This document shows, piece by piece, positions 1 through 59,841 of a DNA stretch of 64,000 nucleotides (position 1 is the stretch's first letter; every line of letters begins with the position of its first letter). This stretch comes from an uncultured Gammaproteobacteria bacterium. Lineage in GTDB: Bacteria; Patescibacteriota; Microgenomatia; UBA12405; JAHJSD01. Position numbers and translations under genes: made by a program. Under the pieces are notes generated by a model. That model was not told the origin of the DNA. It worked only from the letters and a program-made list of their open reading frames with translations, and did not search any database. The stretch is taken from assembly GCA_964428655.1 (NCBI GenBank), contig CAYRYE010000002.1, positions 103,472 to 167,471 on the forward strand. The letters are read 5' to 3'.

Positions 1-819
1 TCTTGGTCCAGCTGGCGAAAACCCAAAATTCCTTAGGTGTCAATAGTGTTCTGTCTCACACCACGGCTGGAACTTATCTCAAGTAACGGGAAATTGGAGG
101 TCTGAGAATTAGAGGAAGATCAATTTCATATACATCCGCTCGCCCAAATTTCGATTTCCACGTTGATCCTTTTCCGTCATAAGCCAGATAGCCTCCACTA
201 CGAATTCGCCTTGTTCTTACAAGCCTTATTCCTGGCCTAGCAAAAGATAACGGTTTGTCCCTCGCGCTTCCTCTTCTTTCTCTCTCTGCTTGTCTTCTGG
301 TCCTTACTCTTCGCAAAACCTCTACTGCACTACTAGTCATATCTACCTCCCCCGACCTCTAGAAGGTCCGAACACACGACCACGGTGTCCTCTAGCGCTA
401 TATCTTCTATATATTGGTATTTTCCGCCACCTTAACTCTACTTTCCTCTCTTCTACTACTTCCCTCTTTGTGGGTACACTTTTAGCCCTCAACACATTCC
501 CCACTATATCTGGTGACCTTCTTACTCCGTCAATAATAACGCTTTTTCTAATCATTGATCTCTTTTCACTCCTCTCCTTCCGCCTCTAGTAACCGGTCGA
601 TAAGACCCTTCTCCCCTTCTGGGCGGCCTCTGTTCTCTTACCGTCTGCCTCGGAAGTTGAAAGCCTCTTCGCGACAATATGGGGCAACTATCAGCCGTGC
701 CGCATGTATGGCATCTATTTCCCACCCCTTTACATTCCGCCAATTTAATCACCTTCCCTTACTAAACTAACCTCTAACATTACAAATTTATAAAGATTTG
801 AGAAAGATGATAGCATATA
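1..819. other. ORF-poor, strand-asymmetric (C/T-rich on + strand) region downstream of proS; candidate ncRNA or degraded gene, extends beyond window edge
   Basis: Only short abutting ORFs in three different frames on the minus strand (Arg/Gly-rich low-complexity translations); + strand strongly pyrimidine-rich; GC higher than typical intergenic DNA here; no 16S/23S terminal signatures found. Confidence 0.3.
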
Positions 820-9602: not shown

Positions 9603-9679
9603 GCCACCTTAGCTCAGTTGGTTAGAGCAACGGTTTTGTAAACCGTAGGTCCTCGGTTCGAATCCGAGAGGTGGCTCCA
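9603..9679 (+). tRNA. tRNA-Thr (anticodon TGT), CCA encoded
   Basis: Cloverleaf folded by hand: acceptor GCCACCT/AGGTGGC, D-arm GCTC-AGTTGGTTA-GAGC, anticodon loop TTTGTAA, T-arm CTCGG-TTCGAAT-CCGAG. Confidence 0.8.
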
Positions 9680-9751
9680 GCGCCCGTAGCTTAACGGACA
9701 GAGTGCTGGTTTGCGGAACCAGTGACGGGGGTTCGATTCCCCCCGGGCGCA
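9680..9751 (+). tRNA. tRNA-Arg (anticodon GCG as read), no CCA encoded
   Basis: Acceptor GCGCCCG/CGGGCGC, anticodon stem CTGGT/ACCAG with loop TTGCGGA, T-arm GGGGG-TTCGATT-CCCCC; GCG anticodon is uncommon, identity moderately confident. Confidence 0.6.
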
Positions 9752-9755
9752 CAAA

Positions 9756-9841
9756 GGAGGAGTCGGATAGCGGTCAATTCCACACGCTTGGAAAGCGTGA
9801 GCCTTTGGGCTACAGGGGTTCGAATCCCCTCTCCTCCGCCA
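9756..9841 (+). tRNA. tRNA-Ser (anticodon GGA), type II with long variable arm, CCA encoded
   Basis: Acceptor GGAGGAG/CTCCTCC, anticodon loop CTTGGAA, variable arm AGCC-TTTG-GGCT, T-arm AGGGG-TTCGAAT-CCCCT. Confidence 0.75.
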
Positions 9842-9842
9842 A

Positions 9843-9917
9843 GCTCCCGTAGCTCAACGGACAGAGCACTGGTCTTCGGAACCAGGGATGAGAGTTCAAT
9901 TCCCTCCGGGAGCACCA
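9843..9917 (+). tRNA. tRNA-Arg (anticodon TCG), CCA encoded
   Basis: Acceptor GCTCCCG/CGGGAGC, anticodon loop CTTCGGA, T-loop TTCAATT (one A.C mismatch in T-stem). Confidence 0.65.
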
Positions 9918-9918
9918 G

Positions 9919-9990
9919 GCCTGGATAGCTCAGAGGTGGAGCATTCCCTTGGTAAGGGAAAGGCCGTGGGTTCGAATCCCACTCCAGGCT
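9919..9990 (+). tRNA. tRNA-Thr (anticodon GGT), no CCA
   Basis: Acceptor GCCTGGA/TCCAGGC, anticodon stem TTCCC/GGGAA with loop TTGGTAA, T-arm GTGGG-TTCGAAT-CCCAC. Confidence 0.75.
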
Positions 9991-10015
9991 CAAAAATGTA
10001 GTATAATCACCCATT

Positions 10016-10192
10016 ATGGCAAAGAAAAAAGGGCCGAGAATGATTGTTGGCTTAGTTTGTTCAGAGTGTAATTCTTTTAACTACATCACTGAAAGAAACA
10101 AAGCCAACACGCCGGAAAAACTAAAATTAAAAAAATACTGCCGAAAGTGCAAAAAGCGGACTGAGCACAAAGAAACGCAAAAGCTGAAGTAA
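10016..10192 (+). CDS. rpmG: 50S ribosomal protein L33 (58 aa, below ORF-track cutoff; found by reading)
   Basis: MAKKKGPRMIVGLVCSECNSFNYITERNKANTPEKLKLKKYCRKCKKRTEHKETQKLK: CxxC...CxxC zinc ribbon and NK..P..L.LKKYC bL33 signature; classic location among tRNAs upstream of tRNA-Trp/secE/nusG; TATAAT at 10002-10007. Confidence 0.8.
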   Translation: MAKKKGPRMIVGLVCSECNSFNYITERNKANTPEKLKLKKYCRKCKKRTEHKETQKLK

Positions 10193-10195
10193 AAG

Positions 10196-10267
10196 GGGCC
10201 CGTAGTATAACGGCTAGTACATCGCCATGGCATGGCGAAAATAGGGGTTCGATTCCCCTCGGGTCCA
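10196..10267 (+). tRNA. tRNA-Ala (anticodon GGC), no CCA
   Basis: Acceptor GGGCCCG/CGGGTCC with G3:U70 identity pair, anticodon loop ATGGCAT. Confidence 0.75.
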
Positions 10268-10269
10268 CT

Positions 10270-10343
10270 AGGGGCGTCGGTTAATGGTAAACCACGGGTC
10301 TCCAAAACCCGGACTGGGGGTTCGATTCCCTCCGCCCCTGCCA
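10270..10343 (+). tRNA. tRNA-Trp (anticodon CCA), CCA encoded
   Basis: Acceptor AGGGGCG/CGCCCCT, anticodon stem CGGGT/ACCCG with loop CTCCAAA, T-arm GGGGG-TTCGATT-CCCTC. Confidence 0.8.
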
Positions 10344-14723: not shown

Positions 14724-15377
14724 TCAGGAGTTCAGCCATTTTTGACGGCGGAGATAGGCCCAGAAAAGAAGAATACCGCCAATACCCACAATGCCCATGC
14801 TTAAAATCATCTCCCATTTATCTAGCCCTTCTGAAACAACGAGAAGGGCTTCCCCACTCTGCCATCCCAACCAGCCCAACAACATTCCTCTGACTAATAA
14901 CCCCAGAGCTGTAGATAGATAGAAACCCAGAGGGCGAATCCTCACCGCCCCGCAAACAGCTGAAATCAAGGAAGACGGGATAACCGGAATAGCTCTGAAA
15001 ACAAAGATTAACAATTCATCAACAACTCGTCCTTTAAAATATTTATCCTTAATTTTCACCACATCAGACCACTTAAAATCTAACCACTTGCTGAATTTAT
15101 CAATCAACCATTTCCCCCCAAACCAAGCGGCTAAATAGATCATGGTTGAACCAATGGTTGAACCAATAGCAAAAGGCAAAGCCGCTTTGAAGAAAACTTT
15201 TTCAATTACCTGCCAAAAATTGGAGATTTCTCTGGGAACAAAGAAAAAACCAGCCGCCATTGGCACCAGAGGCGAAGGAATAGGAACAATTATCTGTTCA
15301 ATTAACCCAGCCAAGGCAACACTGGCAACACCATTACCTTTTATTGTCTCAAAAATCAAGTTATTAAAATCCATCAT
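14724..15377 (-). CDS. DedA / SNARE-associated (VTT domain) family membrane protein
   Basis: 217 aa; multi-TM with conserved G-rich re-entrant loops typical of DedA/TVP38. Confidence 0.6.
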   Translation of the reverse strand: MMDFNNLIFETIKGNGVASVALAGLIEQIIVPIPSPLVPMAAGFFFVPREISNFWQVIEKVFFKAALPFAIGSTIGSTMIYLAAWFGGKWLIDKFSKWLDFKWSDVVKIKDKYFKGRVVDELLIFVFRAIPVIPSSLISAVCGAVRIRPLGFYLSTALGLLVRGMLLGWLGWQSGEALLVVSEGLDKWEMILSMGIVGIGGILLFWAYLRRQKWLNS

Positions 15378-15414: not shown

Positions 15415-16113
15415 TTAAAAAAATAAACTAAAAGAAATCTGTTTTTTTACCTTTTGAACCCACTGATTAATCTTTTTTTCAGAATAAGGTTTCAGTTTTT
15501 CAAATCTTGGATCAAGGGTGTTTTTGGGTTGAAAGTTTTGCCACTTCCAGATCACGTTCCTTCTACCAACTATTTCTTTAAGCTGGTTTGCCATTTTCAA
15601 TAAAATCTTTTTTTTATGAATTTCGGGAACGATTGTAGTGTGAACTTCAAACAGCTTTTTAGATTTTAAAATCAATTTTAATGCTTTCTTAATTTCTCCT
15701 GTTGCTTCAAAATCAGTAATTTTTGGATATTCTTCCCAAACAGTTTTAAAATCAACTGCCCAAAAATCAACCAAATTCTCTTTAATAAGCTTCCCAATCA
15801 TTTCTGGTAAACTGCCATTAGTTTCAATCATTATCTCTAAACCAATATTTTTTACCTTTTTACAAAAGACGTCCAAATCTTTTTGAAGTATCGGTTCACC
15901 GCCCGTGATCACTAATCCATCCACCCATTTTTTTCTTTTTTCCAAATCAGCCAAAATTTCTTGTGCCGGAATCAGCCTCGTTGTGTTCATTTCAACTAAA
16001 TCTTTATTATGGCAAAAAGGACAACGAAAATTACAGCCTGGAGTAAAAATAACCGCCGCAATTTTCCCCGGCCATTCAATTAGTGAAGTTTGCAAATACC
16101 CGGCAATTTTCAT
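15415..16113 (-). CDS. nrdG: anaerobic ribonucleoside-triphosphate reductase activating protein (radical SAM)
   Basis: CNFRCPFC (Cx3Cx2C), GGEP motif; last gene of nrdD operon with 4-nt overlap to upstream ORF. Confidence 0.8.
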   Translation of the reverse strand: MKIAGYLQTSLIEWPGKIAAVIFTPGCNFRCPFCHNKDLVEMNTTRLIPAQEILADLEKRKKWVDGLVITGGEPILQKDLDVFCKKVKNIGLEIMIETNGSLPEMIGKLIKENLVDFWAVDFKTVWEEYPKITDFEATGEIKKALKLILKSKKLFEVHTTIVPEIHKKKILLKMANQLKEIVGRRNVIWKWQNFQPKNTLDPRFEKLKPYSEKKINQWVQKVKKQISFSLFF

Positions 16114-16448
16114 AGTTCTTTTTTTTCTTCATACTGACCCGGACTCCAAGCTGGAGAACTAGCCATAACTACTCTCATATCTCCCTCGACCTGATACCAT
16201 TTCCCTTTTTCAATCATCACCAAATCACCAACACTAATCTCAAATATTTCATCACCAAGGTAAAACTTCCCTCCACCTTTTAAAACAAAATAAGTCATAT
16301 CAACTTTTTCATTTTTCGCCCAGCCCTTTTCCGGATAACCCCCTTTAATATCTACAATTGCCAAATCTAGATTTTTAGTTCCTCCATACTCAAAAACCGT
16401 GCAGGTTGGTTTTTTAAAAACTTGTGCTTTTTGTTTTTTAACTAGCAT
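16110..16448 (-). CDS. cupin-domain protein
   Basis: 112 aa; two-motif cupin beta-barrel pattern; translationally coupled within nrdD operon. Confidence 0.55.
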   Translation of the reverse strand: MLVKKQKAQVFKKPTCTVFEYGGTKNLDLAIVDIKGGYPEKGWAKNEKVDMTYFVLKGGGKFYLGDEIFEISVGDLVMIEKGKWYQVEGDMRVVMASSPAWSPGQYEEKKEL

Positions 16449-16471
16449 AGTTTTAACAGGTTTCTTTAACT

Positions 16472-16759
16472 TTAATTTTTAATTTTGGCTTTTAAATCTC
16501 TAAGGCTTGGCACTTCGCCACGCCAACTAGCAATTTCTTTACCCCCATCGTTGCATAATAATATTGTTGGCGTGCTCATGACCATGTAAAAGGCGGCTTC
16601 GGCCATACCGTCGACAGTATCGATGTCAAACTTTTCAAGTTTAGGCTTCTTGCCACCCGTCCCACCGTCCCGATGTAACATCGTGAGGAGGGACTTCACC
16701 ACTTTTTTCGCTGCCGGACATTTTGGGCAATTCTTTTTAGTAAAGAGTTTTAAAATCAC
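16472..16759 (-). CDS. glutaredoxin/thioredoxin-like small redoxin (CPKC active site)
   Basis: 95 aa; KKNCPKCPAAKK N-terminal CxxC in thioredoxin fold context; within nrdD operon. Confidence 0.65.
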   Translation of the reverse strand: MILKLFTKKNCPKCPAAKKVVKSLLTMLHRDGGTGGKKPKLEKFDIDTVDGMAEAAFYMVMSTPTILLCNDGGKEIASWRGEVPSLRDLKAKIKN

Positions 16760-16980
16760 TTCTGCTCCTTTGCCAATTCAAATCTATAAAAAGCTTTACC
16801 ATTGCGGGTTATTTTTTCCAAAAACATATCTTTGGGCCTAACCCAAATCCGACCATCGTCTAAATGAATATAAACCACCATATCTTCTTCTGTTTCGCTA
16901 TGCTTCGCTTCAAACAAAACTTTCATTTTATAACCTTTAAAATGATTGTAAAGACCACCAATAATTAACTTTCTTGACAT
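16756..16980 (-). CDS. DUF1653-like small protein
   Basis: 74 aa; YNHFKGYKMKV...MVVYIHLDDGRIWVRP resembles DUF1653 signature (Y.HYKGG.Y ... WVRP). Confidence 0.45.
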   Translation of the reverse strand: MSRKLIIGGLYNHFKGYKMKVLFEAKHSETEEDMVVYIHLDDGRIWVRPKDMFLEKITRNGKAFYRFELAKEQK

Positions 16981-19070
16981 TAAAACCTCCCTTCATTCTT
17001 ATAACGATCTTTTAATTCGGCGATTTTACCTTTATTCCACCGACTAGTGAGGCTGAAAAAGCCAGAAACGCGAGTAATATAGTCAACATTTTTACTCTTG
17101 CAATAGGGACATTTTTTCAATAACCCTCGAGCTGTTTTTCGGCAATCATCGCAAAGGGTAAATTCAGGAGAAAAAGCAACCAGCTGGTTTTGTGTTTGAT
17201 AAAAAGTCTTTTCAATAAAATTGGCAATTGACTGCGGCGGCGGCTTTTGCTCACCCAGCCAAATATGCGTCATAGCACCAGCATCAATCAAGGGGTGGAA
17301 TAAGCCTTCTTTAGCCACCCGCTCAATAGGATCTATATTAGCGGAAACATTCATCTGAGTTGAATTAGTATAATAGACTGCCCCTGTTTTAAGATTGCCT
17401 TTAACCACTTGCTTTGCCTGCTCCGGGAACCATTCCAAATCCAGTTTAGCCAAACGATAAGAAGTCCCTTCTGCCGGAGTCTGTTCAGTGCAAATCCGAA
17501 TTCCTAATTCCTTACTCTGCTTCTGGGTACAAAGCCTCATAAAGGAAATTACTTTTAGGCCAAATTTTATAGCCTCATCTGATTGATGAAGCTCCTGTCC
17601 CAAATGATACTGAATCATCTCGTTTAAACCATAAATAGTAGTCAGCTCAACTGAACGGTCAAAACGATAATAAGGATAAGGATCATTTTCCTGCCGTGTG
17701 CAAAGGACCGCCAAAGGCCCAGCCGCTCCCAAGTCAAGAATCCTTTTAATAAAACGCCGTTTTTGAAGATGCGCTTGGGCAATTAAATCCAGCCGCTTTT
17801 TTAACAAAGAAAAAAGTTTCTTTTCATTATGTCCTGCTTTGTAAGCGATCCGCGGCAAATTAACCGTCAGCCAGCTGGTAGAGGAATGTCTCATTAATTC
17901 CGGCTTTTTGGTTTCAAGCAGATCCTGCTTGTCCAACTTAAAGGATAAACGACAGCACTGAGAAATCCGCACACTGCTTCCCCGATCAAAAAAGAACTCG
18001 GTATTCCCCTTTTCAATAGCTACCTGGGCGGCTAATTCCAAAAATTCTTTATGCCCCGGAGTCTGCCAAAATTTTTCCGTCATATGAAAATTCGGCTTAG
18101 GCCAAAAAAAGGGTCTCCCGACTCCGTCTCCGCCAAGATAAACTTTCATCAAGGCAGTCAAAAATCGCTGAGCGTCCTTTTGATAATATTTATAAGTTTT
18201 GCCTGTATATTTACCTCCTGGGCCAATGGCCGGAGTGTTAGCATAATGATCTGGTATCTCCCAATAAAGATTAATGTCGGAAAAAACCGCCTGGCCGCCC
18301 TTGGCAACATTTTGCATATTAAATTCGTAAACCATTAATTGAGCCAAATCATAAAGTTCTTTATCAGACATCCCAGTCAAAAAGGGAGCTAGAAAGATGT
18401 TGACTGCCTCCCAACCAATTGCTCCGGAAAAATTAACCTGCAGCATACAGGAAAATTTTATCAAATGCAGAATTAAAACATGAGCGTGCTTAGCAGGCTT
18501 GGCCATTGCCAACGAAGCAGCTACATTCAAACCGTATTTTTTAACATATTCAAGATTATTACCACAGCAATAAGGCCGATCAGGAAAAGTCAACTTGTGC
18601 AAATGAATATCCCCGCGTAAATGAGCATCGGCCACTCGAGGCGAATAGATCTCAGTCAAAGCATAATCTTTTTTCATTGAACCGGCCAAAGTCATATTGG
18701 TTGTTTCCGGAGTGTGGGGATTATTAGAAGAAACCTGCTCGTTATGAGCTAAGATAACATTGCCCACATCATAAATCGGCAATCCCAAGCGCCGATATTT
18801 ACGGTATTCTCTCTGCAAGCCCCGGTTAAGCAATTCCGCTCCCACTAAAGCCCGAACCAGGGCGCCGGTAATACGCTTGATCTTTAATCGCCGAACTTTT
18901 CGTTCTACTTTTTCGGCAACTTCTTTTAATAAACCATCAGTTAAACCGGTTTCTTGCTTCAAAGATTTAATAATATAACAGTTATCCCAAGAGCCAATTT
19001 CCTCACTGGTAGTTCTCACTTGCATAGTTAAATCCCTAATCTCGTCGCGTTTTGTTGGTACCGGGCTCAT
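16980..19070 (-). CDS. nrdD: anaerobic ribonucleoside-triphosphate reductase (class III), paralog with N-terminal ATP-cone and RVSGFF glycyl-radical motif
   Basis: 696 aa; HLRGDIHLHKL...YCCGNNLEY NrdD N-terminal motif, CCRLSF, C-terminal Zn ribbon CDDC...CPYC and ITRVSGFFS glycyl-radical loop; about 100-aa ATP-cone-like N-terminus. Confidence 0.8.
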   Translation of the reverse strand: MSPVPTKRDEIRDLTMQVRTTSEEIGSWDNCYIIKSLKQETGLTDGLLKEVAEKVERKVRRLKIKRITGALVRALVGAELLNRGLQREYRKYRRLGLPIYDVGNVILAHNEQVSSNNPHTPETTNMTLAGSMKKDYALTEIYSPRVADAHLRGDIHLHKLTFPDRPYCCGNNLEYVKKYGLNVAASLAMAKPAKHAHVLILHLIKFSCMLQVNFSGAIGWEAVNIFLAPFLTGMSDKELYDLAQLMVYEFNMQNVAKGGQAVFSDINLYWEIPDHYANTPAIGPGGKYTGKTYKYYQKDAQRFLTALMKVYLGGDGVGRPFFWPKPNFHMTEKFWQTPGHKEFLELAAQVAIEKGNTEFFFDRGSSVRISQCCRLSFKLDKQDLLETKKPELMRHSSTSWLTVNLPRIAYKAGHNEKKLFSLLKKRLDLIAQAHLQKRRFIKRILDLGAAGPLAVLCTRQENDPYPYYRFDRSVELTTIYGLNEMIQYHLGQELHQSDEAIKFGLKVISFMRLCTQKQSKELGIRICTEQTPAEGTSYRLAKLDLEWFPEQAKQVVKGNLKTGAVYYTNSTQMNVSANIDPIERVAKEGLFHPLIDAGAMTHIWLGEQKPPPQSIANFIEKTFYQTQNQLVAFSPEFTLCDDCRKTARGLLKKCPYCKSKNVDYITRVSGFFSLTSRWNKGKIAELKDRYKNEGRF

Positions 19071-20956
19071 AGTTTCTTATTTCTAAATCGCTCTTTTAAC
19101 TCGTGCCTCTTCCCTTTATTCCATTGCTTAACAAAAGAATAATAACCGACTACTCTTGTTATCCAATCCACATCTTCACTACCGCAAAAACTGCATTTCT
19201 TTTTAATACCCCGCATTACCCGCCCGCAATCATCACAAATAGTGAACTCCGGACTAAAAGCTACTTGGACATTCTGCGTCTGATTAAAAATTTTCCAAAT
19301 CAACCTGGCCATCGACTGCGGCGACGGTCGAGACTCCCCTAGCCAAATATGACTCAAAGCGCCACCCTGCATCATTGGGTGAAACTTTCCTTCAACCTCA
19401 ATTCTTTCCAAAACATCTATTTCGGCGTCAACATCTAATTGGGAAGAATTTGTGTAGTAAACTTCATCTGTTTTTGGATTGCCGTGAACAATTTTTTTAC
19501 TCTCTTCCGGATAGCAAATCAAGTCTAGCTTGGCAAAACGATAGTTAGTTGATTCCGCCGGGTCTTGGTCTAAAAGTATTTTTAACCCCGACTTCTTACT
19601 TTCCTCCTCACACTTTTTTTTCATAAAAGCGGTTATCCGCAAGCCAAATTTAAGCGCTTCATCAGACTGGTGCAGAGCCCTACCCAAATGGAATCTGACC
19701 GCATCAGAAAGACCGCCAACTGCATTCATGAAAGTCATTTTATCAATTCGTAAATAAGGTTCTTTGTCACTTTTGGCAGTTATGGTCAACATACCCAAAG
19801 GCCCGGCAAGCCCCATTGCTAACAACTTTTTCAAAAATTTATACTTCTGCAGGTGAGCTTTAGTCAACAGTTGCAATTTCTCCTCTAAAATCTTGAAAAA
19901 ATTCTCATCATTATGTTTCGCTTGATAAGCTATCCGAGGTAGATTGATGGTCAAATAAGGACAGGCGGCATAACGCATCCGCCATGGCTTTTTGGCATCT
20001 TTTAAATCTTCTTTGGATAACTCGAACTGAACCCGACAGCACTCAGAAATTTTAGCAGTTGCTCCCCGGTCAAAAATAAAATAAGGATTGCCCATTTTCG
20101 AAGCAACATCACAGACATGTTCCAAAAACTCTTTATGACCCGGTGTCTTCCAAAATTTAGTAGTAATATGCACATTTGGTTTTGGCCAGAAAAAGGGCCT
20201 GCCCTTAGCATCGCCCCTTTTATAAATATTCAGTATTTGCCAAACCAAAGCCTGCGATTCTTTAACATAGTCTTTATAAAGCTTGCCCGTATATTCACCT
20301 CGGGGGCCAATGGCCGGCACATTGGCAAAATGATCAGGAATTTCCCAATAAAGATTAATGTCGGAAAAAACCGGCTGGGCCCCATGGGGACCAACTGTTT
20401 GATTAAATTGATAAATTATCCTCTGGGCTACCTGTCTTATTTCCCTATCCCCCATCCCTCCTAAATACGGGGCCATATACATATTTAGGGCATCCCAGCC
20501 AATGGCGCCGCCGAAATGGGCCCGCAGAGCCATGGTCATTCTCATCATATGATCAACCAGAGCATCAATGTGGCCGGCTGGTTTAACAGCGGCAAAAGAA
20601 GCATATTTAGTTAAGCCAAATTTTTTGACATATTCCAAGCTCTGGCCAGAACAATAGGGTCTGTCAATAAAGCCCAGCTTGTGAAGCTTTATATCTCCTT
20701 TTCTATGAGCTTCAGCAACATCTTTGGAAAAAACGTTCCGCAAAGCATATTCTTTTTTTAAAAACTCGGAAAGAGTAAAAGAGGTGCCTTCCGGACTATT
20801 TATTTTGTTGGCATCATCTTTGCTGCCTTCCGAGGCAATAACACCGCCTATTTCACCCAAAGTGATAATAATTTTTTTTCCCAGGCCATTGACTCTCCCT
20901 ATTTCGGTGAAATCAGTGGGGTCAAAACTATCGGTTTCTTTTTTTCTAATTGGCAT
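19067..20956 (-). CDS. nrdD: anaerobic ribonucleoside-triphosphate reductase (class III), paralog lacking ATP-cone, RVVGYY glycyl-radical motif
   Basis: 629 aa; HRKGDIKLHKL...YCSGQSLEY, ECCRVQF, Zn ribbon CDDC...CSFC, ITRVVGYYS; paralogous to downstream copy (shared FSDINLYWEIPDH, GRPFFWPKPN). Confidence 0.8.
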   Translation of the reverse strand: MPIRKKETDSFDPTDFTEIGRVNGLGKKIIITLGEIGGVIASEGSKDDANKINSPEGTSFTLSEFLKKEYALRNVFSKDVAEAHRKGDIKLHKLGFIDRPYCSGQSLEYVKKFGLTKYASFAAVKPAGHIDALVDHMMRMTMALRAHFGGAIGWDALNMYMAPYLGGMGDREIRQVAQRIIYQFNQTVGPHGAQPVFSDINLYWEIPDHFANVPAIGPRGEYTGKLYKDYVKESQALVWQILNIYKRGDAKGRPFFWPKPNVHITTKFWKTPGHKEFLEHVCDVASKMGNPYFIFDRGATAKISECCRVQFELSKEDLKDAKKPWRMRYAACPYLTINLPRIAYQAKHNDENFFKILEEKLQLLTKAHLQKYKFLKKLLAMGLAGPLGMLTITAKSDKEPYLRIDKMTFMNAVGGLSDAVRFHLGRALHQSDEALKFGLRITAFMKKKCEEESKKSGLKILLDQDPAESTNYRFAKLDLICYPEESKKIVHGNPKTDEVYYTNSSQLDVDAEIDVLERIEVEGKFHPMMQGGALSHIWLGESRPSPQSMARLIWKIFNQTQNVQVAFSPEFTICDDCGRVMRGIKKKCSFCGSEDVDWITRVVGYYSFVKQWNKGKRHELKERFRNKKL

Positions 20957-21165
20957 TTTCCAAACAAAAACACAAAAAAATAAAAACGCGCGCCGTTATA
21001 CTCTATTCAAGGGGCAGCCAGAACAAATCAAAAAGCAAGTTACAAGTTAAATAATAATATACACCAAAAGGCAATCTCGCTGTCAACTGGCAATCTCTGT
21101 ATCAAATTCTCTCAAAGATTAAAGATGGCTGTCGACCGCCCTAGAGTAGATCCCAAACAATAAAT

Positions 21166-31892: not shown

Positions 31893-32279
31893 CTATAATT
31901 TTAACTGCTTTTCTAGATTTTCTAATTCTCCTGGTAATTGCAAATTATTTAAATCTAAATTCTTCGGTAAATTTGGGATATTTGGTGCTGGCATGATTCT
32001 TTCCCACTGAATCTGCTGCAAAGTCTTTTCTACCCAACCACTCATTATGCGGCTCAAATTCATCTGGGAAAAAAGATAAGCAATTACCCCAAAAATCACA
32101 ATATAGCCAAAAAGAGTTCCTAACGTATGAAAAACGCCGGCCAGAAAATTAAAGAAGGCAAATTTAAAAGGATTGGCCGAGTAAATCATGTGCCGGCCGG
32201 AAGTTTTCAACTCACCAAGCTGCTGGTTCAACTTTTTAAGTTGTTCGGTTAAATCTTTCTCTTGCTCCATTGTGGGCAC
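31893..32279 (-). CDS. hypothetical membrane protein (128 aa, 2 TM, coiled-coil ends)
   Basis: Hydrophobic core FKFAFFNFLAGVFHTLGTLFGYIVIFGVIAYLF. Confidence 0.35.
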   Translation of the reverse strand: MPTMEQEKDLTEQLKKLNQQLGELKTSGRHMIYSANPFKFAFFNFLAGVFHTLGTLFGYIVIFGVIAYLFSQMNLSRIMSGWVEKTLQQIQWERIMPAPNIPNLPKNLDLNNLQLPGELENLEKQLKL

Positions 32280-32346
32280 GCCAGGATTCGAACCTGGGAC
32301 CCCTGACTTATAAGATCAGTGCTCTAACCACTGAGCTACGCGCCCG
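32274..32346 (-). tRNA. tRNA-Ile (anticodon TAT as read; AUA-decoding type), no CCA
   Basis: Reverse complement folds as GGGCGCG-TA-GCTC-AGTGGTTA-GAGC-A-CTGAT-CTTATAA-GTCAG-GGGTC-CCAGG-TTCGAAT-CCTGG-CGTGCCC-A. Confidence 0.6.
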
Positions 32347-36124: not shown

Positions 36125-36201
36125 GTTCCCGTAGCTCAGATGGATAGAGCGTTCGCCTCCTAAGCGAAAGGTCGAGGGTTCGAATCCCTCCGGGAGCACC
36201 A
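36125..36201 (+). tRNA. tRNA-Arg (anticodon CCT), CCA encoded; last A is the A of the next gene's ATG
   Basis: GTTCCCG-TA-GCTC-AGATGGATA-GAGC-G-TTCGC-CTCCTAA-GCGAA-AGGTC-GAGGG-TTCGAAT-CCCTC-CGGGAGC-A-CCA. Confidence 0.75.
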
Positions 36202-39985: not shown

Positions 39986-40390
39986 CCCCTTCATAAAATA
40001 GCCCAATCGAGCCATAAGGTGAAAAAAACTTATCACCACAAAAGAAGTTCCTAAATTATTGTGCCAAGAGAAAAGAAATTGATTGCTAACTCCTAAGCCC
40101 AAAAGCATACCAAAAACTCCAGCCGGAATAAAGAGAAGGAGTAAACTCACATTCCAAAAATATTTAAAACCAGCTTTAGATAAAAATGTGGTTTTGTTTA
40201 CCAAATACCAATGAAGAAAATACAAAACGGCCGGAATAAAAATAAACCAAAAAATCGGGTCAGCAGAAGCCTTTATTTGCTCTCCCAAAACTACTTCGCT
40301 TCGATCACAAATCTGATTACTGTTCTCATCAATATAGAGACTGCATAATCCAGGATAAGGATCATTGATACGACTATAAGGACAATTCAT
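39968..40390 (-). CDS. hypothetical membrane protein (140 aa)
   Basis: Cys-containing N-terminus then 3 TM helices. Confidence 0.3.
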   Translation of the reverse strand: MNCPYSRINDPYPGLCSLYIDENSNQICDRSEVVLGEQIKASADPIFWFIFIPAVLYFLHWYLVNKTTFLSKAGFKYFWNVSLLLLFIPAGVFGMLLGLGVSNQFLFSWHNNLGTSFVVISFFHLMARLGYFMKGLKNKN

Positions 40391-40408
40391 AGTAAAATAT
40401 TTAGTAGC

Positions 40409-41527
40409 ATGAGTAAAAAATATCTTGGCTTGTTAATCATTATAGCAGGAATAATTCTCTCCCTGCTGATTGTCATTAAAAATTCAATCAGCCAAAAAGG
40501 CCTTTCATCAGAAAATTTACAAGAGGCAAGTTATTATACTCAACTTGAGAACGGCAAGGTTCAATGCAATCTTTGCCCCAACCGCTGTGTTTTAAAACCA
40601 GGCCAGCGGGGCATCTGCGGCGTCCGGGAAAATATTAAGGGCAAGCTTTATTCCTTGGTTTACGGCAAACCTGTCTCCATTCATGTTGATCCAATTGAAA
40701 AAAAACCGTTTTACCATTTCCTGCCTGGAGCAAGAGTTTACTCTCTAGCCACTGTTGGTTGTAATTTGGATTGCAAATACTGCCAAAACTGGGACATTGC
40801 CCATCGAGATCCTGAAGATGTCGAAGCAAGAGATATGACTCCTCAACAAGTAGTCAATGAGGCTCTCCAGAACAAAGCTCAAATAATCGCCTTCACCTAC
40901 AACGAGCCAACTGTTTGGTACGAATACATGTTGGACATTGCCAAACTGGCTAAAGAAAAAGGTTTGCGAACAGTGATTATCACCAGCGGCTTTATTAATC
41001 CTGAACCCTTAAAAGAACTTCTTCCTTATCTTGACGCAATTAAAATTGATCTTAAGGCTTTCAATAATCAAGTTTATTCTGATCTTATCCAAGGCAGACT
41101 TGAACCGGTTTTAGACTCAATCAAAACTGTTAAGGAATCAGGTAAGTGGTTGGAATTAGTCAATCTAATTGTTCCCGGCTACACTGACGATCTTGATGAA
41201 ATTGGCCGAATGTGCCAATGGATCAAAGAAAACATCGGTGATGAAACTCCAATTCACTTCTCTAGATTCTGGCCAAAATATAAACTACTTAATCTGCCGC
41301 CAACATCAGAAGAAATCGTCAAACAAGCTCGCCAAACTTGTTTAGATATTGGTTTGAAATATGTTTATACCGGCAACATTGATGATCTGACCGGCAGTAC
41401 CACTTATTGCCCAGATAACAACCAGTCCTTGCTTCGCCGCCATGGTTATATTATTGAAGAAAACCTAATTGACTCCACCGGCAACTCAAAAGTTTGCCCA
41501 AGTCAAATTCCTGGAGTGTGGAATTAA
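40409..41527 (+). CDS. AmmeMemoRadiSam-system radical SAM enzyme, copy 1, with N-terminal TM anchor
   Basis: 372 aa; N-terminal TM LGLLIIIAGIILSLLIV, then CNLCPNRC...GICGVREN, HVDPIEKKPFYHFLPG, radical SAM GCNLDCKYCQNW; paralog of 43436-44503. Confidence 0.8.
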   Translation: MSKKYLGLLIIIAGIILSLLIVIKNSISQKGLSSENLQEASYYTQLENGKVQCNLCPNRCVLKPGQRGICGVRENIKGKLYSLVYGKPVSIHVDPIEKKPFYHFLPGARVYSLATVGCNLDCKYCQNWDIAHRDPEDVEARDMTPQQVVNEALQNKAQIIAFTYNEPTVWYEYMLDIAKLAKEKGLRTVIITSGFINPEPLKELLPYLDAIKIDLKAFNNQVYSDLIQGRLEPVLDSIKTVKESGKWLELVNLIVPGYTDDLDEIGRMCQWIKENIGDETPIHFSRFWPKYKLLNLPPTSEEIVKQARQTCLDIGLKYVYTGNIDDLTGSTTYCPDNNQSLLRRHGYIIEENLIDSTGNSKVCPSQIPGVWN

Positions 41528-43429
41528 TCAATTTACCCGAGTCGGACTGCAAAAAACTACTAAAAGCAGTAAAACTACCAGAAATCCCGAAAGATTAACT
41601 ATTCCCAACCCCGGCAATAAACAAGTGGCAGTTAATAGGGCGCCGAGAAAACCGCCAAAAAGATCAAAGGCGTAAATAAAGGCTGGATCTTTAGTTTTGG
41701 CAAGATAACAGGCGTTGGTTAAAGCATAAACAGCTCCATCAATAAAGCCACTGGCAATGCCAATTACCAGCCAAAACCAAATAAAGCCTTGCCAATGACC
41801 ACCAATAAACAAAAAGATGAAAATCAAAAGATAACTAACTAAAGCTGGCTTTAGCCATTGCTTTTTCCTTTCAACCCAATCGCCCAGCCAAACTCCTAAC
41901 GCCATTCCCAACAGCACCGCCGCAATAATTAACCCTAGTTGAGAATAAAGGTAGCCAATCTTGGTTTGAAAAAGAAAAAGAATCAAAGTCTCAACCGCCA
42001 TTAAAACAAAGCTGGAAGCGCCTGCTATTAAACCTAATCGCCGCTTTGAACTTAATTTGATGTTTAAAACAATTAAACCCGCTAACAAGGCCAATGGCAA
42101 AAACCAAATCATCCTCCCCATTATTTTGGGTAACTTAAAACTGGAAATCGTCTGCCAAAACAAGTGATGATAGAAGTAAGCTAAAGGCCAATGATCACGA
42201 TTTAATTCCTTTGTTCCTTTGTTAAACCTTGCTGTCAGATCTTTCCGCCGCTGATCCTGCCAAACCCAACGAAAATACTCGCCCTCAGTTTCTGGATCAA
42301 TCTTGATTGGCAACGATGAACCTAAAATAATTACTCTTTCTTCGGCCATCAGTAATTCTGTTTCCGGAAAAACCTGGTTAATGGTTTGGTAAATAATTTT
42401 TCCAAAACGCAATGCTTCTTCACTTTGATAATCAACTGGCAAATAAAACATCAAGGTAAAAATTCCTTTTTTGGTTAATTTTGCTTTAACTACCTTGAAG
42501 AACTCTAAAGTGAAATAACGATTAGTCAAAAGATTACTGGGGTTGCCCGGGGAAAAAACAATTAAATCCCAGTCATTAGCGCTTGCCAAAAATCGGCGAG
42601 GATCACTAACAAACGGCTTAACTGATTGATCCAAAAACTCTTTTTGCAGCTCAAAAAGTTTTCTCTCTGAAGAAAGAAAGACTGACTCCTGTGGCAAAAG
42701 TGTACTTGTTAATTCGTTGGCTAAATTTAAATCTCCAAAAGTCAAAATTTTTGCTGGGGTTGACAAAAATACTGGAAACAAACCAGCTATTTGCCGGCTG
42801 GAAAATCTTTCTTGATTATTAAAAACTGGATTGCCAGAAGAAAAAATTGTCTGCTGGCCAAGATTTTCAGCAACAATCAATTGACTTCCTTTAGAATAAA
42901 CAATTTTGGTTAGGTCGGGATACCGCCTTTTTAACGTTTGACAATCAAATTTAGAGGGCAAGGGAAAAGCTGTTTGACTTAAAACAAAAGTATAAAAAAG
43001 ACCGGCAGCAACAAAACCTATTGTTTCCCAAAAGTAAGCCAGGTTGGGTTTATAGCCCGTTTGACAACCTAAAGTAAACAAGGCTCCGGAAAGAATTGAA
43101 AGGGGCAAAACAGCCAAAGCGGTAATTAGCATTGCTTCAAAGAGTGACGGCAGTTCGCCAAAAGGCAAAACACGACTTAAAATCAAACGCAGCAGAATCA
43201 ACGTTATAGGTACCAATAAAGCAAAAATAAGTTGTAAAAACCAAACCAAACGGAGAAATCGGTAAAGCCTTTTTGCCCACAAGCTCCCCAAACCAACAAA
43301 AAGCAGCCAAAAACCTAAACCAAGAGCATAGAAAATCTCATCTCCCCCAAACCAACTAATCAGCTCGCGCAGAACTACTAGTTGACCCAAAAGTGAAAAA
43401 ACTCCTAATAGAAAAAAGAAAACAAGCAT
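41528..43429 (-). CDS. polytopic membrane protein with embedded spermidine-synthase-like (aminopropyltransferase fold) domain
   Basis: 633 aa; TM helices at both ends; central DLIVFSPGNPSNLLTNRYFTLEFFKVVKAKLTKKGIF resembles SpeE DVIIVDSSDP...FYQ...L..GG motifs. Confidence 0.6.
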   Translation of the reverse strand: MLVFFFLLGVFSLLGQLVVLRELISWFGGDEIFYALGLGFWLLFVGLGSLWAKRLYRFLRLVWFLQLIFALLVPITLILLRLILSRVLPFGELPSLFEAMLITALAVLPLSILSGALFTLGCQTGYKPNLAYFWETIGFVAAGLFYTFVLSQTAFPLPSKFDCQTLKRRYPDLTKIVYSKGSQLIVAENLGQQTIFSSGNPVFNNQERFSSRQIAGLFPVFLSTPAKILTFGDLNLANELTSTLLPQESVFLSSERKLFELQKEFLDQSVKPFVSDPRRFLASANDWDLIVFSPGNPSNLLTNRYFTLEFFKVVKAKLTKKGIFTLMFYLPVDYQSEEALRFGKIIYQTINQVFPETELLMAEERVIILGSSLPIKIDPETEGEYFRWVWQDQRRKDLTARFNKGTKELNRDHWPLAYFYHHLFWQTISSFKLPKIMGRMIWFLPLALLAGLIVLNIKLSSKRRLGLIAGASSFVLMAVETLILFLFQTKIGYLYSQLGLIIAAVLLGMALGVWLGDWVERKKQWLKPALVSYLLIFIFLFIGGHWQGFIWFWLVIGIASGFIDGAVYALTNACYLAKTKDPAFIYAFDLFGGFLGALLTATCLLPGLGIVNLSGFLVVLLLLVVFCSPTRVN

Positions 43430-43435
43430 TATTTA

Positions 43436-44503
43436 ATGTTAAAATTAATCAAAGATAATTTAATTATGCCAAACCTAAAGGCCTTTTACCAAAAACAGGC
43501 TAAGAATACTATCCGCTGTCTGGCCTGCTCGCATCATTGTCTGATCCACAAAAGTGAAAAGGGTATCTGCGGTGTTCGAGAAAACAACAAGGGAAAATTA
43601 AAGCTCCTGGTTAAAGGGAAAGCCGTAGGTATGCACCTTGATCCCATTGAGAAAAAACCGCTATTTCATTTTCTTCCCGGAGAAACAGCTTTGTCGTTTG
43701 GCACTCTTGGCTGTAATTTCTCCTGCCAATTTTGCCAAAACTGGACTCAATCCCAATCACCAAAACAAACTGACAATGTCCCTAAACTCATTGAAAAAAT
43801 CAGCCATAATTATTCGCCAAAAGAAATCGTTGATCTGGCTTTAGAATTCAAATCCCCAACCATTGCCTATACCTACAATGAACCAACGATTTTTATTGAA
43901 TATGCTCTGGAAACAATGACTCTGGCCAAAGAGGCCGGCTTGAAAAATGTCTGGGTCAGCAATGGCTTCATGAGCCGCCAAACACGAAAGGCTTTGGCCA
44001 GTAAACTCGATGGTATTAATATTGACCTTAAAAGTTTTAATCCTGATTTCTACCACCAAATTTGTGGAGCCAAAATCGAACCAGTTCTCGACAACATTAA
44101 GTGGCTCTGGAAAAAGGGTGTTTGGGTTGAAGTGACTACTCTGATTATTCCTGACAAGAATGATTCCCCCAGTGAACTGAAAAAGATTGCCAATTTTTTA
44201 AAAGACATCTCTTCCAATTTACCTTGGCACATTACTCCTTTTTATCCCAGCTACAAAATGCTTAATAAACCAAGAACTCCGGCAGAAAAATTACTTGAAG
44301 CTTGGCAAATCGGCAAAAAAGCAGGCCTAAATTTTGTTTACCCGGGAAATATTATTAATGAGGAACATGCTTCAACACATTGCAGCAAATGCGGCCAATT
44401 ATTAATAAAAAGAAGCGCTATTGGAGTAAGGGTAACCAGCAATTTTAAAAATGGCAGTTGTCAAAAATGTAGTCAGAAAATTCCGGGAATATGGCGGCGC
44501 TAA
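43436..44503 (+). CDS. AmmeMemoRadiSam-system radical SAM enzyme, copy 2 (soluble)
   Basis: 355 aa; CLACSHHC...GICGVRENNKGKL, LDPIEKKPLFHFLPG, GCNFSCQFCQNW. Confidence 0.8.
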   Translation: MLKLIKDNLIMPNLKAFYQKQAKNTIRCLACSHHCLIHKSEKGICGVRENNKGKLKLLVKGKAVGMHLDPIEKKPLFHFLPGETALSFGTLGCNFSCQFCQNWTQSQSPKQTDNVPKLIEKISHNYSPKEIVDLALEFKSPTIAYTYNEPTIFIEYALETMTLAKEAGLKNVWVSNGFMSRQTRKALASKLDGINIDLKSFNPDFYHQICGAKIEPVLDNIKWLWKKGVWVEVTTLIIPDKNDSPSELKKIANFLKDISSNLPWHITPFYPSYKMLNKPRTPAEKLLEAWQIGKKAGLNFVYPGNIINEEHASTHCSKCGQLLIKRSAIGVRVTSNFKNGSCQKCSQKIPGIWRR

Positions 44504-59688: not shown

Positions 59689-59761
59689 GGTCCGGTGGTG
59701 AAGTGGCTAACACGGCGGTCTGCAAAACCGCTATTCATGGGTTCGAGTCCCATCCGGACCT
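59689..59761 (+). tRNA. tRNA-Cys (anticodon GCA), no CCA
   Basis: GGTCCGG-TG-GTG-AAGTGGCTAA-CAC-G-GCGGT-CTGCAAA-ACCGC-TATTC-ATGGG-TTCGAGT-CCCAT-CCGGACC-T. Confidence 0.75.
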
Positions 59762-59768
59762 CTTTTTT

Positions 59769-59841
59769 GCGCCCGTAGCTCAGCTGGCAGAGCACCGGCC
59801 TTTTAAGCCGTGGGTCGGGGGTTCGAATCCCTCCGGGCGCA
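59769..59841 (+). tRNA. tRNA-Lys (anticodon TTT), no CCA
   Basis: GCGCCCG-TA-GCTC-AGCTGGCA-GAGC-A-CCGGC-CTTTTAA-GCCGT-GGGTC-GGGGG-TTCGAAT-CCCTC-CGGGCGC-A. Confidence 0.75.

Follow-up and report, generated by a model that had tools for sequence, protein, structure and literature searches.

A conserved tandem pair of diverged class III ribonucleotide reductase paralogs in Patescibacteria

RESULTS

A six-gene operon carries two diverged NrdD genes in tandem

We analyzed a 64-kb window of DNA (contig CAYRYE010000002.1, hereafter the window), in which a first-pass annotation had marked a six-gene class III ribonucleotide reductase (RNR) operon at 15415-20956 on the minus strand. The open reading frames (ORFs) lie at exactly these coordinates and encode, from upstream to downstream, two paralogs of the catalytic subunit NrdD (nrdD-A and nrdD-B, hereafter A and B), a DUF1653 protein, a thioredoxin (Trx)-like redoxin with a CPKC active site, a small cupin and the radical-SAM activase NrdG (Table 1). 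Both paralogs score above the cutoff (326.35 bits) of the curated NrdD model TIGR02487 and match PF13597 with E-values of 1e-128 (A) and 1e-133 (B), and the PDB sequence matches of A are all NrdD proteins. NrdG exceeds the cutoff of the NrdG2 model TIGR02495 (184.9 bits; cutoff 131.15), and the redoxin exceeds that of PF13192 (28.0 bits; cutoff 24.8). Thioredoxin matches of the redoxin in NCBIfam, including the MJ0307 family, were far under cutoff, and its best match in the PDB was 1fo5, the Methanocaldococcus jannaschii MJ0307 thioredoxin (E 2e-4). A PDB search with the DUF1653 protein returned only low-complexity repeat matches to designed propellers. Thus, the identities first proposed for the DUF1653, redoxin and nrdG genes were borne out by the family models, but the cupin fell slightly under the Pfam cutoff (Cupin_2, E 6e-6; 26.3 bits for a cutoff of 27.2).

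Both paralogs are full length and diverged, with 51% identity across 601 residues and no identical nucleotide stretches needed to account for the two genes, and the stop codon of A overlaps the start codon of B as ATGA, all in agreement with the annotation. Overlaps also join B to DUF1653, DUF1653 to the redoxin gene and the cupin gene to nrdG. The claim that all of these genes are translationally coupled therefore stands for four of the five junctions and fails for the redoxin and cupin genes, which are separated by a spacer of 23 nucleotides (nt). The upstream copy had been described as lacking an ATP-cone and carrying an RVVGYY glycyl-radical loop, both of which we read in A; the ATP-cone-like N terminus and RVSGFF loop ascribed to the downstream copy were found in B, where the N-terminal domain aligns to relatives that are positive for the ATP-cone model PF03477. 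The window contains a single nrdG-like gene, besides two weak radical-SAM matches, and no nrdR. The nearest named relatives of the proteins come from metagenome-assembled genomes of Candidatus Shapirobacteria, Pacebacteria and the "Patescibacteria group."

A is followed by B in a conserved cassette

We gathered related loci (numbered L001 onward) by means of exact protein look-ups and a pair-specific pattern (PFFWPKPN); an earlier contig scan with the generic peptides KISECCR and DRPYCSGQ had yielded mostly single-copy NrdDs and only two A-type loci. Two further metagenome samples show the same six-gene order (L001, L002). More broadly, the tandem pair occurs in related genomes: in at least 19 non-identical loci, B comes directly after A, and A was never seen without B. 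On the 3' side of B, a Trx-like gene and then nrdG follow wherever the contig is long enough. DUF1653 is present in five cassettes (L001, L085, L090, L102, L112) and absent from most others, and the cupin is present in three (L001/L002, L085, L112). The conserved core is A-B-Trx-NrdG, and the DUF1653 and cupin genes are lineage-specific add-ons. Since the two copies are so far apart in identity and recur in many samples, we rejected the idea that they are an assembly artefact or a recent duplicate, an outcome that the first-pass annotation had itself asked to be checked.

The surroundings of the cassette are also informative. In L113, nrdR (with a Zn ribbon and an ATP-cone) lies directly upstream of A and overlaps it, and, from the ends of the upstream ORFs, nrdR probably also precedes A in L086, L090 and L091. 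In other loci, genes for NUDIX, thymidylate-kinase-like, CYTH or phosphoribosyl pyrophosphate (PRPP) synthetase proteins lie near the cassette. Such nrdR and nucleotide-metabolism neighbors are the company expected of an RNR.

The pair derives from a duplication within one NrdD lineage

Homologs of the pair fall into an A clade of ~56 clusters (57-81% identical) and a B clade of ~49 clusters, followed by a gap, beyond which lie ordinary NrdDs at ~55% identity. In a neighbor-joining (NJ) tree of 81 sequences, built from corrected p-distances over 624 well-aligned columns with 100 bootstraps, A and B form one clade (100% bootstrap) together with a third group, B', which is the downstream partner in L003, L004, L090 and L100 and is near-canonical in sequence; this clade stands apart from all of the ordinary NrdDs sampled. 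Within it, A is monophyletic (100%) and so is B with B' (97%), such that the two copies, whose phylogeny had been left as a question, belong to sister clades. Moreover, A, B and B' have in common derived Trp residues (PFFWPKP, KFW) where ordinary relatives have Phe. Thus, the single clade and the common Trp residues point to a duplication in tandem that took place within an NrdD lineage of Patescibacteria, after which A deleted ~65 residues of the N-terminal domain.

Both copies retain the catalytic residues of a thiol-type NrdD

No sequence of A, B, B' or the ordinary NrdDs departs from the beta-A Cys (RPYC), the CCR motif, the radical Gly or the four Cys of the Zn ribbon. In particular, CCR and RPYC (the C330 and C125 positions of Thermotoga maritima) are intact in 56/56 A sequences, 49/49 B sequences and 125/125 ordinary relatives. 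The Zn ribbon and glycyl loop read CDDC...CSFC...RVVGYY in A and CDDC...CPYC...RVSGFF in B, and the A clade has more than 200 invariant columns. Because the catalytic residues are invariant, we rejected a pseudo-paralog: the loss of such residues, which the annotation had said to look for, was found in neither copy.

A double-Cys loop without a preceding Met, combined with a Glu at T. maritima position 495, is the signature of NrdDs reduced by a thiol redoxin (Burnim PMC9669993; Aurelius PMC4493059). Met is absent from the finger loop of both copies, which reads ECCR in A and QCCR in B. The position of Glu495 is occupied by Glu in 42/42 B and 7/7 B' sequences, and by Asp (30) or Glu (26) in the A clade. 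The NrdD2 feature set (third Cys, no Met, Glu495) is thus complete in B and present only conservatively in A. From these residues, A and B fit a thiol-dependent (NrdD2-like) class III RNR, as had been suggested from the redoxin in the operon, and the disulfide formed in the pair would presumably be reduced by this CPKC redoxin.

The predicted fold of A, the ten-stranded barrel of NrdD, agrees with its assignment as a class III RNR. Among PDB structures, the 36 best fold matches of a full-length AlphaFold2 (AF2) model of A (predicted template modeling [TM] score 0.80) are all class III RNRs with TM scores of 0.6-0.75, and matches to other glycyl-radical enzymes have TM scores below 0.5. Since the model matches only class III RNRs well, repurposing to an activity like that of pyruvate formate-lyase is unlikely.

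Divergence falls on regulatory and substrate-lid elements

Motifs were mapped to the T. maritima and Prevotella copri structures via phmmer alignments, which were used for loop 2 and HxHD, where adding the T. maritima sequence with MAFFT --add gave a misalignment. In P. copri NrdD, activity regulation converges on a nexus of the NxN flap, HxHD, the Tyr after the radical Gly, and loop 2; flap Asn114 contacts the gamma-phosphate, and the Tyr hydrogen-bonds the PAE Glu that bridges substrate and flap (PMC11226230). HxHD itself has been defined as a triphosphate motif (PMC4493059; PMC11226230).

Ordinary relatives keep NAN, HLHD and Gly-Tyr at 95-100%, and the paralogs depart from these motifs in different ways. 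The flap is NAN in 100% of ordinary relatives and in B', SSN in B and DAN in A (with the first Asp in 56/56), the second Asn being kept in both A and B. HLHD, found in 125/125 ordinary relatives and in B', becomes HLHK in B and [H/K/N/M]L[H/Q]K in the A clade (KLHK, HLHK, NLQK, MLHK, HLQK); HxHD is thus absent from both window proteins, although it is a characteristic motif of the family rather than a strict criterion of membership. The residue after the radical Gly is Tyr in ordinary relatives and in A, and Phe in B and B', in which the hydrogen bond between Tyr and the PAE Glu would be lost. The annotation had called this Gly-Phe unusual; it is present as described, but it is unusual only in part, since it is fixed in the B lineage and also occurs in 6/125 ordinary relatives. 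This distribution gives no sign of new chemistry. Finally, the pair of residues before the NLPR strand, invariantly QN in ordinary relatives and also QN in B', is SW in B and PY in A. We had considered QN as the equivalent of T4 Asn311, and dropped this assignment when the T4 alignment put Asn311 three residues earlier, opposite an Ala.

At the specificity site, the entry to helix alphaB and loop 2 also differs: it reads QQAVARGGQA in ordinary relatives, MQNVA(K/R)GGQA in B and B', and QT.GPHGAQP in A. The half of loop 2 nearer the substrate (FSDINLYWE) has been conserved throughout the groups, and A and B alike retain NLPR, the PAE helix, the Zn ribbon and the Gln of the specificity site. A has no N-terminal domain. 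The N-terminal ~95 residues of B gave no match to the Pfam ATP-cone even at E<=10, and align over their full length with the N-terminal domain of relatives, some of which match PF03477. In an AF2 model of this domain (pLDDT, the predicted local distance difference test score, 65), the best fold matches are the ATP-cones of NrdR, NrdD and NrdB, and they are weak (E 0.26-2).

We compared the groups across the 246 core columns in which ordinary relatives show at least 95% conservation, and found divergence at 31 of them in A, 39 in B and 22 in B'. In A, the diverged columns are enriched in alphaA-alphaB-loop 2 (10/44, compared to 21/202 elsewhere; p = 0.03), and the flap and the finger loop tend to hold the changes in B (p = 0.07-0.09, not significant). 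By these alignments, the differences affect the elements through which regulation is coupled to catalysis, and of the possibilities raised initially, it is a split of specificity or regulation that the data favor.

NrdD has been duplicated in tandem independently in other phyla

The contig scan with generic peptides also surfaced loci in which two NrdD genes in tandem precede a Trx-like gene; they come from Margulisiibacteriota, Saganbacteria (WOR-1) and Omnitrophota, and some from unclassified bins (Table 1). These NrdD copies, which we refer to as L029-type, are full-length members of the same subfamily, arranged head to tail with overlap and 67-71% identical; they keep the N-terminal domain and the canonical NAN, HLHD, QN and GY, and nrdG is not adjacent. 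They form a clade of their own in the NJ tree (99%), apart from A and B, and thus represent an independent duplication. Their fixed core differences are concentrated in the segment at 119-200 in A numbering (alphaA-alphaB-loop 2), which holds 13/25 of them (binomial 7e-6). Two sites in this numbering illustrate the parallel: at site 145, an invariant Gln of relatives is Arg in A and His in the L029-type downstream copy, and at site 195, the Ala of relatives is Pro in A and Gly in the L029-type downstream copy. Thus, the same segment was hit in both duplications, which identifies the region of the dimer interface and of the specificity site as a recurrent target of change after NrdD duplication.

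A conserved upstream element overlaps the predicted promoter

Upstream of A lies a predicted sigma-70-like promoter, with a -35 box (TTGACA) at 21086-21081, ~125 nt from A, and a -10 box at ~21061-21056. The element TTGAT-N7-TTG-N4-TTGACA, which overlaps the -35 box, occurs in 10 loci, as one copy per locus immediately upstream of A, and nowhere else in the 111 loci collected, including ~80 ordinary NrdD loci. For a stricter form (TTGATA-N6-TTG-N4-TTGACA), the window contains a single exact match. Aligned across loci, the element has invariant bases and TTGA-like repeats phased at ~10-11 nt; by its sequence and position, it is a putative operator or activator site. We had also entertained a riboswitch or attenuator in the 5' leader, and dropped this reading because an Rfam search of the leader gave no match at E<=1 and its folding energy is no better than that of shuffles (z = +1.5).

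Other features of the loci

Several further features lie in or around the operon (Table 1). A VTT/DedA-family membrane protein gene on the same strand, 37 nt 3' of nrdG, may be co-transcribed with the operon; a gene of this family is also 3' of nrdG in L085 and L112. The two ORFs with weak similarity to NrdG are probably unrelated radical-SAM enzymes. Eight tRNA genes are clustered within ~740 nt of the window, and further tRNA genes lie at three other sites in it. The window A protein (P0233) sits in a 90%-identity database cluster represented by a fragment of 35 amino acids (aa), and for this reason the homology search showed no 100% match for it.

Elsewhere, NUDIX hydrolase, thymidylate-kinase-like and CYTH genes are inserted in or appended to the cassette in L109, L115 and L114, and, a few kb downstream, L111, L114 and L115 encode a DUF8128/TraG-like ATPase and a phage-type integrase, a hint that the neighborhood of the cassette is mobile. 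L097 encodes a 1646-aa NrdD-like ORF with FFWPKPN, which scores best as an ordinary-type NrdD and is probably an intein-containing or fused NrdD.

Table 1. Features of the window and of related loci (positions without a locus number refer to the window)
Feature	Position	Strand	Size	Remarks
nrdD-A	19067-20956	-	629 aa	Cone-less class III RNR catalytic-subunit paralog; TIGR02487 382.7 bits; RPYC, ECCR, LDQDPAE (Asp463 at the T. maritima Glu495 position), RVVGYY (Gly604); altered: KLHK for HxHD, DAN for NxN flap, PY for QN
nrdD-B	16980-19070	-	696 aa	Class III RNR catalytic-subunit paralog; TIGR02487 409.4 bits; RPYC, QCCR, TEQTPAE (Glu529), RVSGFF (Gly670); altered: HLHK for HxHD, SSN flap, SW for QN
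nrdD-B N-terminal domain	residues ~16-95			ATP-cone-like
DUF1653 protein	16756-16980	-	74 aa	PF07866 E 1e-20, passes Pfam; variable accessory gene
Trx-like redoxin	16472-16759	-	95 aa	CPKC active site; GTG start
Small cupin	16110-16448	-	112 aa	Variable accessory gene
nrdG	15415-16113	-	232 aa	Radical-SAM activase; CxxxCxxC (CNFRCPFC) at residues 27-34
Predicted promoter and conserved upstream element	21056..21113	-		TGAy-N6-TTGAT-N7-TTG-N4-TTGACA, then TATATT-like -10
5' leader of operon	20957..21055	-	~90-100 nt	No recognizable RNA element
Cis element, window copy	21081-21113	-		
Cis element, other copies	L003:283-307, L083:7062-7086, L085:4883-4907, L094:397-421, L108:982-1006, L109:6918-6942, L111:6864-6888			
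VTT/DedA-family gene	14724-15377	-		Membrane protein
Weak radical-SAM match	40349-41524	+		E 1e-6 to NrdG
Weak radical-SAM match	43412-44500	+		E 1e-4 to NrdG
tRNA cluster	9603-10340	+	~740 nt	Eight genes
tRNA	32273-32345	-		
tRNA	36125-36198	+		
tRNA	59689-59841	+		Two genes
nrdR	L113:3667-4128			Overlaps A
B without A	L102:6327-11001			DUF5667, B, 297-aa Trx fusion, NrdG, DUF1653
Inserted or appended genes	L109:10967-13609, L115:9181-9759, L114:3745-4182			NUDIX hydrolase, thymidylate-kinase-like, CYTH
Large NrdD-like ORF	L097:4890-9827		1646 aa	FFWPKPN
Tandem loci outside A+B	L029, L034, L048, L074 (6659-10841), L080, L082			L029-type

DISCUSSION

We conclude, with a probability of roughly 0.7, that the operon encodes a thiol-dependent class III RNR system with two catalytic-subunit paralogs and divided regulation, which possibly acts as a heterodimer. 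Gene content, conservation of the pair, its common origin, the retention of catalytic residues and the identity of the diverged motifs come directly from the data, and from these we infer the activity of both copies, the reductant, the regulatory split and the heterodimer. In the mechanism that we envisage, the operon would be transcribed from the one predicted promoter, and A and B would be made together by way of the ATGA overlap. The single NrdG would install the glycyl radical on Gly604 of A and on Gly670 of B, and each subunit would reduce nucleoside triphosphates (NTPs) via its finger-loop Cys pair and beta-A Cys, with the active-site disulfide re-reduced by the CPKC redoxin of the operon rather than by formate. 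The paralogs would split the regulatory apparatus and not the chemistry. B keeps an ATP-cone-like N-terminal domain and has an altered flap/Tyr/HxHD network linking the glycyl-radical domain to the substrate; in A, the N-terminal domain has been deleted, the specificity-site helix that precedes loop 2 remodeled and the triphosphate motif relaxed.

An A-B heterodimer is an attractive mechanism, because the homodimers of P. copri NrdD consist of one active and one inactive monomer by virtue of an asymmetric loop 2 (PMC11226230), and two distinct chains could fix this asymmetry. The co-occurrence of the genes, their order and the divergence in the interface region are consistent with such a heterodimer, which we propose tentatively as the likeliest assembly, judging it to be almost as probable as not. 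We are more doubtful of the extended version, in which an obligate heterodimer of a cone-bearing and a cone-less chain had two or more independent origins, one in Patescibacteria and another in Margulisiibacteriota/Saganbacteria/Omnitrophota.

A number of observations weigh against the divided, two-chain system as we have described it. B occurs without A in one locus, L102, in which the redoxin is the N-terminal domain of a 297-aa protein with a 240-aa extension; this locus is syntenic with the A-B loci L109, L111 and L115 (DUF5667 upstream, and DUF8128 downstream for L109/L111). Thus, B can probably work without A. In a mirror-tree comparison of 14 paired loci (L001, L003, L004, L083-L095, L109, L111), the pairwise distances of A and B are barely correlated (0.12), and the window A groups with A proteins that are partnered by B' while the window B groups with derived B proteins. 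The incongruent trees indicate that partners have been exchanged between lineages, without tight lineage-specific co-adaptation, which would imply recombination or partner replacement inside the cassette. Likewise, the variable motifs of A showed no co-variation with the type of its partner (B or B'). The tree itself comes from a distance method only, with A on a long branch, such that long-branch effects are possible. The enrichment of changes in alphaA-alphaB-loop 2 is modest for A and absent for B, and interface divergence is equally expected if the paralogs avoid cross-dimerization. Moreover, the proton donor is proposed to be a Glu, in whose place the window A has Asp, and since both copies have Lys for the Asp of HxHD and a changed first Asn in NxN, canonical NTP binding is not guaranteed.

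Several of these points would be accounted for if A and B instead form two independent homodimers, a cone-controlled B2 (for example, with shut-off by dATP) and an A2 that is unregulated or differently specific, with the interface changes serving to keep the paralogs apart. We regard this arrangement as plausible and yet on balance doubtful. Both copies have the full catalytic set, partners appear to be interchangeable, B stands alone in L102, the dimer-interface and specificity helices have diverged as insulation of paralogs predicts, and multiple RNRs per genome are common (PMC3019208). Nonetheless, an autonomous A enzyme should sometimes survive alone, and A was never found without B; the order, adjacency and frequent start/stop overlap of the genes are conserved; and small candidate phyla radiation (CPR) genomes rarely keep redundant 2-kb genes. 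Furthermore, co-expressed paralogs with this degree of identity and a conserved four-helix interface are expected to cross-dimerize unless prevented.

It is also conceivable, though in our estimate unlikely, that B (or B') is the working reductase and A an impaired structural or allosteric partner, comparable to the inactive monomer in an NrdD dimer or to Rnr4 beside Rnr2 in yeast; this idea overlaps with the heterodimer. The triphosphate motif of A is degenerate and variable where ordinary relatives are uniform, about half of the A sequences have Asp at the proton-donor position, the helix before loop 2 carries Gly-Pro-His, and the N-terminal domain is missing; A is never alone, as B can be, and where the partner is B', which is near-canonical, A is the sole aberrant copy. 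A silent A is difficult to reconcile, however, with the invariance in all 56 A sequences of the radical Gly and the Tyr that follows it, of the two finger-loop Cys and the beta-A Cys, and of the Zn ribbon, or with the extent of invariant columns across the clade. We consider it very improbable that one copy has come to catalyze a non-RNR glycyl-radical reaction, as the first-pass annotation had allowed, or now acts on an unusual nucleotide substrate, such as nucleoside diphosphates (NDPs) or a modified nucleotide. While the residues that contact the gamma-phosphate are changed in both copies (Lys for the HxHD Asp; Asp or Ser for the first Asn of NxN), the family-invariant QN is replaced in both and the window operon has a cupin and DUF1653, these two accessory genes are missing from most cassettes. 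The RNR motifs, from FSDINLYWE and NLPR to the PAE helix, Zn ribbon and specificity-site Gln, are kept in both copies, the model of A resembles class III RNRs above other glycyl-radical enzymes, in other loci the pair has nrdR and genes of nucleotide metabolism as neighbors, and these reduced genomes need an RNR.

The closest parallels among known enzymes are with the NrdD2 proteins of Neisseria bacilliformis and T. maritima (PDB 4U3E/4COI), which resemble the pair in the xCCR loop without Met, PYC, Glu495 (Glu or Asp in A), the Zn ribbon, the C-terminal glycyl loop, and a thiol redoxin as the likely reductant (PMC9669993, PMC4493059). Unlike NrdD2, the system described here has two paralogous catalytic subunits, a redoxin inside the operon and altered HxHD and NxN motifs; CC is preceded by Glu in A and by Gln in B rather than by Ser, and the Zn site is CxxC...CxxC, compared to CxxxH...CxxC in T. 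maritima. In structure, the best fold match of the A model is P. copri NrdD (PDB 8P23; E 2.5e-27, TM 0.75), to which B is similar in having a putative N-terminal regulatory domain, linker and flap, and with which the nexus can be aligned residue by residue. P. copri NrdD, however, is a formate-type, single-Cys homodimer whose monomers are transiently active or inactive. Here there are two genes, one chain is cone-less, the nexus is substituted (DAN/KLHK in A; SSN/HLHK/Gly-Phe in B) and the N-terminal domain of B is too diverged for the Pfam ATP-cone model. B also resembles the NrdD3 of Methanosarcina barkeri in its QCCR and in the linked small redoxin, which is NrdH-like there (PMC9669993, PMC9176816). 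NrdD3 has neither the Met nor Glu495; since B keeps this Glu, it is not NrdD3, and A has ECCR. A ferredoxin:disulfide reductase gene is not present in the cassette. The Margulisiibacteriota-type tandem loci similarly have two NrdD genes followed by a Trx-like gene, with differences concentrated in alphaA-alphaB-loop 2, but there the more derived copy is downstream and the canonical motifs are kept. A duplicated RNR subunit that serves as the obligate partner of its paralog is found in the yeast Rnr2-Rnr4 beta-beta' pair. That case concerns the radical-generating subunit of a class I enzyme, and Rnr4 has lost its metal ligands, whereas both paralogs here keep their radical and catalytic residues.

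To our knowledge, all characterized class III RNRs are homodimers of one NrdD. Paralogy among RNRs is known in general (PMC3019208), and in searching the literature we came across neither tandem NrdD paralogs nor a class III RNR in CPR bacteria. What is new here is the conserved two-paralog architecture, the partition of regulatory elements between the chains and the independent, parallel duplication elsewhere. The recurring pair suggests a two-subunit version of an enzyme that is known as a pair of identical subunits, and it amounts to a natural experiment on the asymmetry of NrdD monomers, since the cone domain, the substrate-lid flap, the Tyr beside the radical Gly and the specificity-site helix are distributed differently between the two chains. 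If A and B do form a heterodimer, then the radical-bearing chain, the substrate-binding chain and the crosstalk between activity and specificity sites would become separable, as they are not in a homodimer. In phyla unrelated to each other, NrdD was duplicated in parallel and then diverged in one and the same segment of the interface. Within the present lineage, the pair bears on how deoxynucleoside triphosphates are synthesized in the ultra-small genomes of CPR bacteria, which rarely keep redundant genes.

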